Source: a virus
Taxonomy: Duplodnaviria; Caudoviricetes
Strand: one strand, 5' to 3'
Length of the DNA: 64,000 nucleotides
IMG/VR virus record: IMGVR_UViG_3300037422_000298
The position numbers and the translations under genes are program-made. Positions 2,465-10,379 of this stretch are shown here, in pieces (the first letter of the stretch is position 1; every line of letters starts with the position of its first letter). The notes under the pieces were generated by a model that saw nothing but the letters and a program-made list of their open reading frames with translations, ran no database searches and had not been told where the DNA came from.

Positions 2465-4658
2465 AAACTAAACCTCGCAAGCGCGTCACGTGCTTTTCCT
2501 GTAGCCGTCGGCGAATCAAGTACGCTGACGGCCTGTGTGAGACCTGTCATCGTGTTGCCGTCAACGTCGGCCGCCGTCTTGCGATCATCTTCGATGGCGC
2601 GCGATGGCACGTTCGGTCGATTCGGCTGATCGAACACGATCTGGATCTCGATGAGAAGATCTATCGATGCGACAAGCCGATCAGCAACGATCACCGCTCG
2701 ATCGAAGACGCAGTCGCTTCAGCAAAGAGGTACCAACGTGTCGCGTGACTTCAAGCCGATCGATCCCAACAGCGCCCCATCGACACGCAACGCTCGAACG
2801 AAAGATCCAGGAGAAGCGTGAACCGCTACATCATGAAGCCGCCGATGCGCCTCGACGCGCACGGCCACTCGCTCGAACGCTTCATCGAACGCTGGTGGCC
2901 GTGGACACCCACAGAGCTGCGCCTACGTAGCCCGAACAAGAAGGCTGCAGCGCTGCAGCCGCGACTCGCGGAGCTGAAGATGGCGGTCGCTTCGCGTGCG
3001 TACCACGTCGAGAACATCCCTGACGAAGATCAGAGCATCTGGGCATGGACGGTCTGTGCCGGGCCCAACCAAGGCCGCACGGCGTTGATGGTCGTGTCGC
3101 AAGACGGCACAGTGCGAACCGTGTTGCCGCCAGAAGCGAAACGTCCCGCGAACCGTCGGAGGTCGTCGTGATAAAGAAGGTCTACGAGATCGTTACCTTC
3201 GAAGATGCCGGGTACTGGATGCTGCTCGAAGACGGCATCGGGATGGCCAAGAGCAAGTCACGGAACGCGCTCAAGCGCATCCGTGATGCACTGCAAACGG
3301 CGCAAGAGACCGGCCTGATCGGTTTGACCGTCGAGATCGAGGGCGTGAAACGCGGCATCGTGCAAGCGATCAGCGACCGCGCTGACTTGATCGTTCGGCG
3401 TACGGGCGTCCTGCAGACTGACAATCTCGAAGTCTGGCCAGTGCATGCATGTCGTCTCGTCGAGCCCGACAAGATCGACACGCCGACGCCGTGGAACGAT
3501 CCAGCAATTGGCGTCATTCCGGCTATCAAGTTGCTCGAACGTGTATTGGCGTGCGGCATCGATACGATGGGGCACGAACTTGAAACCGTCGCCGACGACA
3601 TCAAGAAGTTTCTCAAGGCACGAGAGGACGCACAGCCTACGCCATGAAGACCAACCAAGATCAAGAACATGTCGACGAAGAGGCGCCCACGCGCACGGTG
3701 CCGTGTAGCATCCATCCGCTGCATCGCGTGAAAGTTCGCACCGACGGCTCGCGTTCGGGCTGCGTGATGTGCGAAGACGCAATCGCTGACCTGACTCGAA
3801 AGGACGGACGATGACCACTGACTACCGTCGAGCAATGACTGCACTCGCGCTTGAACTACCACAAGAAGTTCATCGGCACATCGCAGATCTGTTCGAGCCA
3901 CTGATCGCCGAACACGAGACGAAAGCGATGTCTGTTCTGCAGCCGTGGGTCATGAAGCTCCCGCTTCGCGCGCAGGGCACACTCCTCACTGGCTTTCGTG
4001 GTTGCGATCTCGCACCGAAGAATCCTGTCACGATCGACGAGAGAAACGGCTGCTCGACGGGCGAAGACACCGTCCCGCGTCAGCTCGTCGCGTACTTGCG
4101 TTTCCTGACGCTCGTAGCTGCGGATCCGCGCGAGATCGACGTCCCCGGCGCGTGGTTTCAATCCAAGCCACCGGAGAAGTGGAAGCCGTCGCAGCTCTCG
4201 CACTATCCACTGCACTGGTACGGCCACCTCATGCACTGCTTCGAGGTCGTTGCCTACCTGCGGCCGATCGACGACGAGCACACCGATCGCGCGATTGGTA
4301 TCTACACGCGGCTCGTGCGCGCGCTGCATCTGAACCCTGAGACGAAGGCGCAGATGCTCGAACGCCTGACCGAAGACCGCATCGCGAAGGGCGACGTCGT
4401 CTCGTGAAGGACGAGAAGAAGGCTGCGCTCGAAGCGAATGGCTGGAAGGTCGGCGACGCTGCGCAGTTCTTGGAGATGTCCGAGGCCGAGAAGCAAGCGA
4501 GCCGTCTCATCCACAAGTACGGCCGCGACGGTGCGCTCAAGGCCGTCAAGCAGAACGTCAAGAAGGCCGTCAGCGAGGCCCAGGAAGAATTCTGGGAAGC
4601 CGTTGGCGACCTGATCGAAGAGACCTGCGAACGCCCCGAACAGGAGAACGTCTCGTGA
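2461..4658 (+). CDS. Run of small hypothetical genes (2461-2748, 2818-3171, 3168-3647, 3644-3814, 3811-4407, 4404-4658)
   Basis: Overlapping stop/start junctions (ATGA/GTGA); consistent codon usage. Confidence 0.55.
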
Positions 4659-5353
4659 CCAAGCTCATTCTCGCGCTCGACGTCCCGAGCTACGACGACG
4701 CGATGCAATTCGTCGAGTCGATCGAAGGCAATGTACACCTCGACTGGGTCAAGGTCGGCCTGGAGCTGTTCATCTCCGACGGTCAGCGCGTGATGGATGC
4801 AATGTCGAAAGCCGGGTTCAACATCATGCTCGATCTGAAGCTGCACGACATCCCGGAGACCGTCGCTCGCGCGACGGCGCGCGCAGCAGACCTTGGTGCA
4901 GACATGCTGACGATTCATGCCGCGGGCGGCCCGGCGATGATCGCAGCGGCGAAGAAAGCTGCGGGTGACACCAAGATCCTCGCGGTGACGGTTCTGACGT
5001 CGCTCGATGAAGACGACCTGGTCAAGATCGGTCACAGCCCGACGCCGCACAAGACGCTCGTACGCGACCTGGTTCTCCGGCGACTCCGACTGGCCGAAGA
5101 CAACGGTGCCGACGGCGTCGTCTGCTCGCCGCTCGAAGTTCAGACCCTCAAGATGAACGTGATCCGCGGGATGTTGTTCGTGACGCCTGGGATCCGTCCA
5201 TCGGGCGGCGACACGGGCGATCAGAAGCGCGTCGCCACGCCAACGGGTGCCCGCGAAGCGGGCGCGAGCTTCATCGTTGTCGGGCGGCCGATTCGTGACG
5301 CGAAAGACCGGGTCGCGGCCGTAAAGGGCATCCTGGCGGAGCTGACCACGTGA
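4655..5353 (+). CDS. pyrF: Orotidine-5'-phosphate decarboxylase
   Basis: LILALD, KVGLELF, catalytic DLKLHDIPETV, VTPGIRP, DQKRVATP, IVVGRPI. Confidence 0.97.
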   Translation: MTKLILALDVPSYDDAMQFVESIEGNVHLDWVKVGLELFISDGQRVMDAMSKAGFNIMLDLKLHDIPETVARATARAADLGADMLTIHAAGGPAMIAAAKKAAGDTKILAVTVLTSLDEDDLVKIGHSPTPHKTLVRDLVLRRLRLAEDNGADGVVCSPLEVQTLKMNVIRGMLFVTPGIRPSGGDTGDQKRVATPTGAREAGASFIVVGRPIRDAKDRVAAVKGILAELTT

Positions 5354-6295: not shown

Positions 6296-6356
6296 CATAC
6301 TTTCCGCGATGTCACTAGGGGCATCGAGAACAACGAGCAGGGAGAACGAAGAGCAC

Positions 6357-7166
6357 ATGCGTACGCAGCAACAGCATCAGAGCAACGGAAACGGACACGT
6401 CCCCACGCGCGGTGACGTCATGAAGCGCGGGCGCGCAGCACTCGTCGACACCGACGAAGACGCGCCGCCCAAGCGGCGCGGGCGCCCGCCGAAGATGACG
6501 CCGTCGCCGGAAGTGATCGAGCTGCCCGCGGCGAAGGGCAGGAAGGGCAAGGCTGCCAAGGGTGCCGACAAGGGCGAGCTGTCGATCCCGGAGCTGGAGA
6601 CGGCCGAGATCACGTTCACGGTTCGCGGCCTCACGTCGCTGATCGTCCACCGCTTCGGCGAGAAGTCGCGCAAGCAGATGGAAGACAACCAGCAGGGCGT
6701 CGCGCGTCACAAGAAGGCGCCCAAGGTTCCCGAAGACGAATTCCGCAGCTCGCTCTACGTGATCGACGCGAAGAAGGGCATCTACGGCTTTCCGGCGTCG
6801 GGCTTCAAGAAGGCGATGGTCTCGGCGTGTCGCTACGCCGAAGGCGTCACGATGACGAGGATGCTCGGCGCGTTCCACATCATCGGCGATCTGCTGCCGA
6901 TCAAGGGTCCGCCGCCCAAGATGCGCACCGACGTCGTGCGCGTCGGCAAGTTCGGTTCGAAGACCTCGGACATCCGCTACCGCGGCGAGTTCACGGACTG
7001 GAGCGTCGACGTCAAGATCCTCTACAACGCCAGGGTTGTGAACAAGCAGGTGCTCGCTCACCTACTCCACCTCGCAGGCTTCTCCGTCGGCATCGGCGAG
7101 TGGCGTCCCGAGAAGTCGGGACAGTTCGGCATGTTCGAGCTGGCGAACAAGTCGGTCGGTAACTAG
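6357..7166 (+). CDS. Solo RAMP/Cas7-like protein (Vipr-like effector of the adjacent repeat array)
   Basis: TVRGLTSLIVH first strand, YGFPASGFKKAMVSA helix, RYRGEFTDW, C-terminal G-rich loop AGFSVGIGEWRPEKSGQFGMF; disordered basic N-terminus; GGAG RBS before ATG 6357. Confidence 0.8.
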   Translation: MRTQQQHQSNGNGHVPTRGDVMKRGRAALVDTDEDAPPKRRGRPPKMTPSPEVIELPAAKGRKGKAAKGADKGELSIPELETAEITFTVRGLTSLIVHRFGEKSRKQMEDNQQGVARHKKAPKVPEDEFRSSLYVIDAKKGIYGFPASGFKKAMVSACRYAEGVTMTRMLGAFHIIGDLLPIKGPPPKMRTDVVRVGKFGSKTSDIRYRGEFTDWSVDVKILYNARVVNKQVLAHLLHLAGFSVGIGEWRPEKSGQFGMFELANKSVGN

Positions 7167-7182
7167 TACTTCGTCGACGAGA

Positions 7183-7214
7183 AACGCCGTGATCGCAGCA
7201 GCGATCACGGCGTT
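7183..7214 (+). terminator. Perfect 14-bp hairpin between the RAMP gene and the array (terminator or processing site); contains the GATCGC-N4-GCGATC motif
   Basis: AACGCCGTGATCGC-AGCA-GCGATCACGGCGTT followed by a pyrimidine-rich tract. Confidence 0.6.
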
Positions 7215-7279
7215 CGTGTTCGTTCTCTGAAAACCGTTGTTCCATCGTCGCGCAAGCAAGCGCGACGACGTCATGGTGA

Positions 7280-9810
7280 GGCAGTCAAGGTGCGGCGCTG
7301 CAGGGCTCGGCGTATCAGGGTCTGGCTCTGTAGGGTCCGGCAACGGTATGGTCGCGCACGGCAGTCCACGTACGGCACGGCGTTGTGTGTTTCGGCGTCG
7401 CAAGCTACGGCAGTCCAGGTCCGTTGCGGCTTCGTTCGTCGCGGCGCGGAAAGGTCGCGCTCGGCAGTCTCGGAATGTCAGTGCAGGTCTGGGTCAGGCC
7501 GCGTTTGGCCCGGCTGCGTTTGGCCCGTCAAGGTGCTGCAGGGCAGTCATGGTTCGGTGCTGCATCGCACTGCTTGGTGTCGTCGGGCTCGGTCCGACGC
7601 GTCGAGGTTAGGCAGTCTTGGTAGGGCTCGACGTGGTCCGTTCGCGCAAGGATCGTTCTGGCTTGGCGCGGTTTCGCAGTCTCGGTCGGGTGAGTCGCCG
7701 CTTGGTGCCGTTGGGCATCGCGCGGTCAGGCACGTCGAGGCAGTCATCGTTTGGTGAATCAGCGCTTGGTTCGTTGAGGCATCGTGCGGCATCGCAGTCA
7801 GGGAATCGCTGGGCAACGCTGGTCCAGGCAACGCACCGCTCGGCATCGCCGTCGAGGTTTGGCGCGTAATGGTTCGTCAAGGCTACGCATGTTTGGGTTG
7901 GGCCGTCTCGGCATGTTTGGATCCGGCTAGTCAGTGTACGGCTAGGCGCCGCGCGGTATGGAGAGGCAGTCAGGGTCTCGGCGCGGCAAGTCAGTGTACG
8001 GCTAGGCGCCGCGCGGTATGGAGAGGCAGTCAGGGTCTCGGCGCGGCAAGTCAGTGTACGGCTAGGCGCCGCGCGGTATGGAGAGGCAGTCAGGGTCTCG
8101 GCGCGGCAGTGCTGCGCCAGGTAGCGCATGTTCTGGCCGGGCTGTCAGGGTTTCGCATCGCATCGCAGTGCGCGATACGGCAACGTCCGTTTCGGCGGTG
8201 CGTGGTAGGGCAGTCTGGTTGCGGCAGCGTCTGTTCAGTCAAGGCATGTTGTCGTTCGGCAGTCAGGGCAAGTTCAGATCCGGCGTTGCTCGGCTCGGCG
8301 TGCGCCCGTTTCGTCACGGCCAGGTGCGGTTGGGCCGTCGTGTCGAGGCATCGCTACGTCCGTTCCGTCAGGGCGCGGCACGTCGGGGCCGTCCAGGTTC
8401 GGCGCGTCAGTGCTGGGTCCGACTTTGCGGGGCAGTGTCCGGCGGGGCATGACAGTCGAGGACAGGCTGGTCACGGTTGGTTACGGTCGTGCCTGGTTTG
8501 GCAGTCATGGTTTGGTTCGGTACCGCTGGTCTTAGTTGGTCATGCCCGGTCTCGACGTGGTTCGGCAGTCGCGTCTCGGTATCGGCAGTCTTGGTAGGTC
8601 AGCGTCGGTCTTGGCAGCGTTCGGTGTGATCGGGTTCGTTACGGCAGTCTGGGTCCGGCGAGGTTTGTCAACGCAGTGCACGGCAACGTACGTCTCGGTG
8701 GGGCAGTCAAGGCACCGCATCGCGGGTCTAGTTGCGTCTCGGTTCGTTTCATCTCGGCAAGGCATGGCCGTCTTGGCAAGGCATCGCCCGTTGCGGCGCC
8801 GTCCGGCCAGTTCTGGTTTGGTAGTGCGTCTTCATGGCAGTCGTGGCTTGTTCCGGCGCGGCCCGTTGTGGTGTTTCATTGCTTGGTAGGGCAGTCGCGG
8901 TTCGTTTCGGCAGCGCGCGTCTGCGTCCGGCATTTGCTCGGTTGGTCGCGGCAGCGGTATGGCCGTCGTGGTCCGTCGGCGTTTGTTCGGGCTAGTTATC
9001 GTCTCGCGCGGCTCGGCAGTTTCGTCTGGGATCGGTTCGGCCTGCTGGGGCAGCGCGTGGCATCGCATCGCATGGCCGTCTTGGTTTCGCACGTCAAGGC
9101 TCGACAGGTTCCGGCTAGGCGCCGTACGGTGCGGCCGTCTAGTCACGGTTGCGCTGGTCGCGGCAGTTTTCGGTTGGTCGCGGTAGTGCATCGTCCGGCA
9201 TCGGCGCGGCAGTCCCGTCGGGGCGTCGTCTCGCTTCGCAAGGCAAGGTCAGGCGAGGACTCGTTTGGCGAGGCAGTCATCGCCAGGTTCGTCGAGGCAG
9301 TGCGAGGCATGGATCGGTTCGGTGGAGTTCGGCGCGGCAGTCGCGGTAGCGCGGGGAAGTGCCCCGCTAGGCAAGGCGTCGCTCGGCGCGGTCAGGCAGT
9401 CCCGGCGCGTCACGCTTTGGCAGCGCTTGGCGGGGTACTGTGTGTCGAGGCAGGGCCGTCTGGGTTAGGTCCGGCGTGTCGCGGTTCGGTTCTTCACGCG
9501 AGGGTGCGGTACGGCATCGCAGTCTTGGATCGTCTCGGCATGGCCGGTTCCGGCAGAGCAGTTCACGGCTAGGTACGACGCGGCAGTCGGTCATGGTCAG
9601 GTGAGGATTGCATCGCAGTGCGCGGCGCCGCCGGGCGTGGCTGTCTTGGTCAGGCGAGGCTCGGTCTCGTGCGTCGCGGCGAGGTTTGGCAGTCTCGGCG
9701 CGGTGGCGTACGGCTCGACAAGGTTCGGCAAGGCCCTGCAGGGCAGTCATGGTTAGGTCCGTCGGGGCGTGATCCCGTGCGTCGCGGTCCGGCACGGCAG
9801 GCATGGCAAG
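7280..9810 (+). ncRNA. Array of ~42 putative guide-RNA units: GGCAGTC separator + NN + n x (GGY-like triplet + NN)
   Basis: Separators (GGCAGTC, GGCCGTC, CGCAGTC, GGCTGTC variants) at 7280, 7360, 7409, 7463, 7542, 7611 ... 9688, 9742; 31 of 41 spacings are 5n+4 (49/54/59/64/69/79); no credible protein in any frame. Confidence 0.85.
7929..8108 (+). repeat. Exact 60-bp tandem triplication inside the array
   Basis: AGTCAGTGTACGGCTAGG...GCGCGGCA x3. Confidence 0.97.
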
Positions 9811-9839
9811 TCGAGAGTGACTTGTGCTAGAGTTGATCG

Positions 9840-10379
9840 ATGGCGCGCGCAGCAACAAGGCAGTCTCGATCGCGGCAGCGATCTACGCATTGGACGTATC
9901 ACTTCAAGGCCGTCGAGGGCAGCCGGTACACCGATCAGGATGCACAGCGTATCGGTCCCGAGTTGACGCGTATCGCGCAACGCGATGGTGAAATTCGCCC
10001 ACAAGCCGTCGTCGACGAAGCACGCTCGCGGCGCTCGCCGTTTCACCGACATTTCCAATGGGACATCCAGAAGGCCGCCGAACAACACTGGCTCGACACT
10101 GCTGGACGGTTGATCCGCGCGATCAAGATCGAGGTCGTCAGCGGACCACAGCGTGCACCCAAGGAAGTCCGTGCGTTCGTCAAGATCGATCGCGCGACCG
10201 GTTATCGTCCGACCATTGAAGTGTTTCAGCGCGACGACTACCGCAACGCGGTGCTCTCGCGTGCACTCGAAGAGCTGGAAGTCTGGAAGAAGCGCTACGA
10301 GAACTTCGTCGACTTCAGCGAAATCTTCGGCGACGTCGCGCCGATCATTGTACAGGCTCAACAGCGGCTGCGAGCGTAG
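9840..10379 (+). CDS. Conserved phage protein, probable accessory of the RAMP/array locus
   Basis: IRPQAVVDEARSRRSPFHRHFQWDIQKAAEQHWLDTAGRLIRAI motif; immediately downstream of the array. Confidence 0.7.
   Translation: MARAATRQSRSRQRSTHWTYHFKAVEGSRYTDQDAQRIGPELTRIAQRDGEIRPQAVVDEARSRRSPFHRHFQWDIQKAAEQHWLDTAGRLIRAIKIEVVSGPQRAPKEVRAFVKIDRATGYRPTIEVFQRDDYRNAVLSRALEELEVWKKRYENFVDFSEIFGDVAPIIVQAQQRLRA

Follow-up and report, generated by a model that had tools for sequence, protein, structure and literature searches.

Described VIPR systems and the locus compared

Three preprints from 2026 describe VIPR, a system related to CRISPR that silences DNA under RNA guidance (bioRxiv 10.64898/2026.04.26.720920, also PMC13142463; 10.64898/2026.04.26.720927; 10.64898/2026.10.15.759431). 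The protein, Vipr, is a minimal single-RRM RAMP with a G-loop that is encoded beside its guides; these guides (vrRNAs) are composed of 9–16 YNNGG repeats, in which the NN pairs recognise double-stranded DNA (dsDNA) with one skipped base that is mostly aligned to the codon wobble position. According to the cryo-EM structures in these preprints, one protomer covers each repeat, the GGY bases are buried, the NN bases are presented, and an R-loop triplex is formed on the target. Natural targets reported in the same texts include satellites, prophages, and other VIPR systems, and binding represses transcription. The characterised example is a type II system from Escherichia phage SUSP1. The third preprint describes a guide placed on invariant codon positions of the active site of a satellite recombinase; because these positions are the ones that are read, escape from this guide requires an amino-acid change. 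Staggered arrays with a 1-nt overlap are also listed, while small-RNA sequencing confirmed two other architectures but not the staggered one. The main texts of these preprints, as far as consulted, do not mention P63C among the targets.

The 64 kb stretch of DNA analysed here (the window), from an uncultivated virus of ~241 kb whose contig seems to derive from a freshwater metagenome, carries a module (Table 1) whose membership in VIPR is well supported, because its Cas7-like protein shows homology to the SUSP1 Vipr in the C-terminal G-loop region (residues 222–285; 36% identity; pairwise BLASTP E 5e-11) and because the SUSP1 locus itself has one vrRNA upstream and three downstream, as published. 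As the locus matches published VIPR, the kind of system that it represents is already known. Features shared with published VIPR include (i) a lone RAMP/Cas7-like gene together with a putative accessory gene in a virus, (ii) units of 9–15 pentamers, as compared to 9–16 YNNGG repeats, and (iii) NN pairs with one skipped base at the codon wobble and predicted targets on other phages or prophages. VIPR systems avoid self-targets at ≥80% NN match, and no self-target with up to three mismatches was found in the 64 kb window. Unlike in the SUSP1 system, ~40 guides follow one another without a break over 2.6 kb, between vipr and the vap-like gene; they lack the conserved 3′ tail or pseudoknot of SUSP1 and are joined by a 4-nt GCAG junction instead. 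The accessory protein of the window is unrelated to vap1 of SUSP1, to which it shows no similarity, and the window Vipr has an extra basic N-terminal stretch of ~90 aa. With a junction of 4 nt, successive guides are staggered by one base, in agreement with the “staggered arrays” of the preprint. What is new here is a staggered-type array of ~40 guides in a virus of ~241 kb, as well as P63C as a target class.

With the backbone of type III and type VII CRISPR-Cas complexes (i.e., Csm3/Cmr4/Cas7 on crRNA), the window system shares the RAMP fold; in it, too, each protomer would cover a short stretch of RNA, and base pairing would be interrupted in a thumb-like manner at regular intervals. The period is 5 nt with two bases read in the window system, whereas it is 6 nt with five bases read in the type III/VII backbone; the window system also differs in being virus-encoded and in having a gapped target. 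No cas1, cas2, cas6, cas10, or cas11 gene was found in the window, and the only repeat element is the 4–7 nt junction, with no CRISPR repeats of 20–40 nt. RNA anti-CRISPRs (Racrs) and phage solitary repeat units (Nature 2023, PMC10651486) are likewise non-coding RNAs that phages encode and that are loaded onto RAMP proteins. However, Racrs mimic host CRISPR repeats and poison host complexes (PMC10651486), whereas the window phage brings its own RAMP and its RNA carries the target information.

The module, its array, and its relatives

Table 1. Positions of the module's features within the 64 kb window.
Feature	Positions	Strand	Basis or description
vipr (Cas7-like RAMP)	6357–7166	+	AF2 fold, Foldseek, homology to SUSP1 Vipr
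Perfect 14-bp hairpin between vipr and array	7183–7214	+	Terminator-like site
vrRNA array	7281–9815	+	~40 units of junction plus pentamers; period-5 signal
Tandem guide copies	7924–8108	+	Tandem Repeats Finder: period 60, 3.1 copies, 99% match
P63C guide	9455–9518	+	GCCG (9455–9458) plus 12 pentamers, 64 bases; NN antisense to codon positions 1–2 of IVALVDEATGYQ
vap-like accessory gene (179 aa, phrog_15946)	9840–10379	+	Conserved partner of vipr homologs

The longest open reading frame (ORF) of vipr starts at 6309; its homologs start at M17, which corresponds to 6357, and the gene ends 115 nt upstream of the array. An AF2 model of Vipr (pLDDT 81 overall and >90 in core residues 95–280) matched Csm3/Cas7 of type III and type VII complexes in Foldseek (prob 1.00, E 4e-6, TM ~0.5). 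Approximately 900 homologs were found, and none of the Pfam families covers the protein. The N-terminal ~90 aa (window 6309–6600) are basic, modelled with low confidence, and without counterpart in the actinophage homologs; this extension contains an AT-hook-like sequence, KRRGRPPK. The model of the accessory protein (pLDDT 66) had no match in the PDB, and PADLOC includes no family for either Vipr or the accessory protein. Neighbouring ORFs showed no Cas families in Pfam, and megablast found no match among GenBank phages for 25 kb of the window. The virus also carries, at 4655–5353 of the window, an ORF similar to orotidine-5′-phosphate decarboxylase (PyrF), which may represent an auxiliary metabolic gene; a gene of identical length in a metagenomic relative, L179, carries the Pfam domain OMPdecase.

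The array extends over ~2.6 kb, is G/T-rich on the + strand, and shows autocorrelation values of 0.38–0.39 at lags of 5, 10, and 15, as compared to ~0.25 in control DNA; this period-5 signal is restricted to ~7250–9815, a region in which no convincing ORF was found. Splitting of the region at GCAGT yielded a simple unit grammar, in which a 4-nt junction (GCAG, less often GCCG) is followed by 9–15 pentamers of the form K-Y-N-N-G, equivalent to the YNNGG repeats of VIPR; unit lengths therefore follow 5n+4 (i.e., 49, 54, 59, 64, 69, and 79). Within the array, the + strand contains GGCAG 40 times, whereas the − strand lacks it. An Rfam search of the array gave no match, and hammerhead ribozymes are thus absent from it; a scan for σ70 promoters found none. 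The hairpin between vipr and the array is followed by a T-rich stretch ahead of the first guide, and may possibly represent a terminator, an attenuator, or the 5′ boundary of the array transcript. One guide unit is present in three near-identical 60-nt tandem copies (see Table 1), suggesting a recent duplication within the array.

Homologs of vipr are found together with a phrog_15946 gene in Gordonia phages ODay, Ecliptus, UmaThurman, and Pipp, in ~27 Mycobacterium phages (Cheoctovirus group), and in cyanophage Cy-LDV1. In the Gordonia phages, the Mycobacterium phages, and Cy-LDV1, an NN-GGC array with GGCAG junctions adjoins this gene pair, and the full module of vipr, array, and partner gene was seen in ODay, UmaThurman, Donkeykong, and Cy-LDV1. 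The array is located upstream of vipr in Mycobacterium phages and between vipr and the partner gene in the other phages. Two annotated coding sequences for a “hypothetical protein”, gene 40 of UmaThurman (L176:4625–4948) and gene 48 of Donkeykong (L177:2480–2866), consist of nothing but NN-GGC pentamers, with GGCAG at the junctions; because of these pentamers and junctions and the adjoining vipr homolog, both are most likely vrRNA arrays rather than genes. In Gordonia phage ODay (L175:3159–5700, genes 17–21), the VIPR module and two HTH genes lie within the block of tail genes, between the tail assembly chaperone gene and the tape measure gene, and the ODay module looks like a mobile cassette.

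Arrays of metagenomic relatives are 1–3 kb long. Comparison with L179, a relative whose protein is 95% identical, showed that most guides are common to both arrays and that whole units have been gained or lost; window units 7543–7675, 8891–8934, and 9689–9742 are missing from L179. Across orthologous guides, 5.6% of NN positions differ between the window and L179, as compared to 10.3% of GGY positions (Fisher p 8e-4); NN positions are more strongly constrained than GGY positions. In the P63C guide, all four substitutions that separate the window from L179 are at GGY positions, and one pentamer is deleted.

The P63C guide and the genes that it matches

The original prediction had placed a unit at 9454–9517 and derived from it a series of NN pairs; this series (tg ta cc gt gc tc tc ac ag gc ac at) was confirmed letter for letter, with the unit itself shifted by one base (Table 1). 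The pairs are found at 9461–9462, at 9466–9467, and then every 5 nt up to 9516–9517. The border of this guide is ambiguous, as it could also be read as GCAG (9450–9453) followed by 13 pentamers; under this alternative, the first pentamer (GGCCG) departs from the consensus and would be a mismatch to the target. The code that had been proposed, with wobble positions skipped, is the 1-nt skip rule given for vrRNAs in the VIPR preprints.

Reverse complementation of the 12 NN pairs, with one free base allowed after each pair, gives a gapped pattern with 24 fixed bases (AT GT GC CT GT GA GA GC AC GG TA CA). A search for this pattern, as had been suggested along with the original prediction, yielded at least 120 exact matches in genomes of bacteria and archaea, plus 54 on viral contigs of IMG/VR, while ~0.004 would be expected by chance (596 Gb, both strands; 1.2e12 sites / 4^24). 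All 174 listed matches are in frame, as [I/M]VALVD[E/D]ATGYQ; 170 of them read IVALVDEATGYQ, three read MVALVDEATGYQ, and one reads IVALVDDATGYQ, and among these listed matches the motif mostly has G in front of it and xxR behind it. The phyla represented among the listed matches include Acidobacteriota, Actinomycetota, Pseudomonadota, Planctomycetota, Chloroflexota, Bacteroidota, and Deinococcota, as well as candidate phyla. The skipped positions vary almost freely (frequency of the commonest base 0.30–0.67), with 157 distinct 36-mers among 172 sites; the matches are therefore not copies of one element. Across the same 172 sites, the footprint of the guide stops where conservation falls off.

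Ten ORFs around matches, taken from diverse genomes and viral contigs, all scored above the gathering cut-off of Pfam P63C (PF10546; 26.1 bits), with 88–128 bits and E values of 1e-25 to 1e-37. The pattern scan and Pfam together identify the IVALVDEATGYQ block as the most conserved block of P63C-domain proteins. The description of this motif as a hallmark of P63C proteins thus stood with regard to the proteins tested but not with regard to the Pfam model and logo: the motif ends ~10 residues short of where the model starts, and the logo alone would therefore not show it. That the guide spells the P63C motif is a solid conclusion, and the case for this guide is about as strong as sequence alone can provide.

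Because only exact matches count towards these totals, targets that match a guide at 80–95% of NN positions escape the scans. An unbiased sample of 400 further genomes of one phylum contained P63C genes in nine (one of these genes, L196, is from an unpublished genome, G388); seven of the nine genes match 19–23 of the 24 NN bases, six of the nine reach the 80% threshold of the preprint, and the motif is absent from the two weakest Pfam P63C matches among them.

The other guides behaved differently from the P63C guide in the same kind of scan. Guides 8136, 8501, 8837, 9134, 9273, and 9743 had no exact gapped match in IMG/VR, and guides 8388 and 8837 had none in metagenome contigs, so that the P63C guide is the only one of eight guides examined with an exact public match; since the seven others gave zero, the scan does not produce matches by default. 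The original prediction had also read a Walker A motif in guide 8837–8890 and a kinase motif in guide 9743–9796; neither reading was supported by exact search, as the former found no exact gapped match in IMG/VR or in metagenome contigs, and the latter found none in IMG/VR. When all guides of the array were compared with the 174 P63C neighbourhoods, no second guide rose above shuffled controls.

Over their whole length, P63C proteins belong to phrog_2384, a family with unknown function, and the C-terminal part of one of them weakly resembles Ant anti-repressors. PADLOC includes no family for P63C proteins, and a literature search for P63C returned only unrelated papers on p63 and on crystallography. 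In an Enterobacter lambdoid prophage (L007:5809–7352), the P63C gene is located directly downstream of a gene for a CI-like repressor, on the same strand, with the CII, O, and P genes lying opposite, in the immunity region. Similarly, in a viral contig (L121:2355–3549), a P63C gene is located directly downstream of a gene encoding an XRE-type regulator, on the same strand. This rex-like position hints at expression of these two P63C genes in lysogens; in four other loci, the neighbours of P63C genes were uninformative. The original proposal that the guide is directed at a competing phage or prophage fits these observations, given the matches in IMG/VR, the phrog_2384 assignment, and the location in the immunity region of the Enterobacter prophage. 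In the published VIPR systems, it is likewise competing mobile elements that are silenced.

Proposed mechanism, competing readings, and implications

We conclude that the unit at 9455–9518 is very probably a VIPR vrRNA, which would act by silencing the P63C gene of a resident prophage or of a competing phage. If the array behaves as published for VIPR, its + strand (7281–9815) would be transcribed, and cleavage or termination at the GGCAG/TC junctions would yield ~40 guides. Following the structures in the preprints, Vipr would assemble into a filament on each guide, with one protomer on every pentamer, GGY buried and NN presented, and this filament would bind dsDNA with every third base skipped. 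The 24 presented bases of the P63C guide would then pair with the coding strand over the 12 codons of IVALVDEATGYQ, the skipped bases being the wobble positions. The likely outcome would be transcriptional silencing of the P63C gene on the resident prophage or competing phage.

How widely such a guide is meant to act can be read in more than one way. We consider the chances about even that this VIPR guide was selected against one P63C gene of one competitor and that its wide match is a by-product of a near-invariant motif. The motif is nearly invariant in the P63C family, so that any guide placed on this block would match widely, and no public match was found for the other guides tested, which is what guides against specific, unsampled elements would be expected to show. 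The argument made in the preprints is that wobble-aligned guides on invariant codons block escape; this is compatible with the single-competitor and the broad readings alike. A further-reaching interpretation, in which the guide is a deliberately escape-proof, family-wide weapon, with one RNA silencing P63C genes in prophages of many hosts because it reads nothing but codon positions 1–2 of a nearly invariant 12-residue block, seems unlikely to us. If it were true, P63C proteins would be lysogen-expressed exclusion or defence factors worth disarming. Any benefit of silencing P63C genes is conjecture.

P63C mRNA as the target of the guide, in place of DNA, is quite improbable. The NN pairs of the guide are antisense to this mRNA, and the nearest structural relatives of Vipr, Csm3 and Cas7-11, are RNA-targeting backbones, both of which would suit an RNA target; however, the published VIPR complexes bind dsDNA, on either strand, with formation of an R-loop triplex, and no nuclease or catalytic partner is evident at the locus. 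Finally, although gene callers do place ORFs over such arrays (e.g., UmaThurman gp40, Donkeykong gp48, and ORFs in L179), the idea that the match is a coincidence or that the region is degenerate protein-coding or repeat sequence without guide function is refuted and retains practically no probability, given an array periodicity of 5 rather than 3, at least 174 in-frame matches against the 0.004 expected, the comparison of guides with shuffled controls, the stronger constraint on NN than on GGY positions, and the persistence of the array beside a Cas7-like gene across phyla.

The P63C guide, read in this way, gives an independent confirmation, from raw sequence and on a distant clade, of the published gapped VIPR code. 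It also provides a very clean natural target, with 24 of 24 read bases present in at least 170 genes from many phyla. The finding raises the questions of how processing takes place in “staggered” arrays that lack a tail but have a conserved GCAG junction, why a virus of ~241 kb keeps ~40 guides, and what makes P63C proteins worth silencing. UmaThurman and Donkeykong are well-studied actinophages and would be tractable laboratory models.
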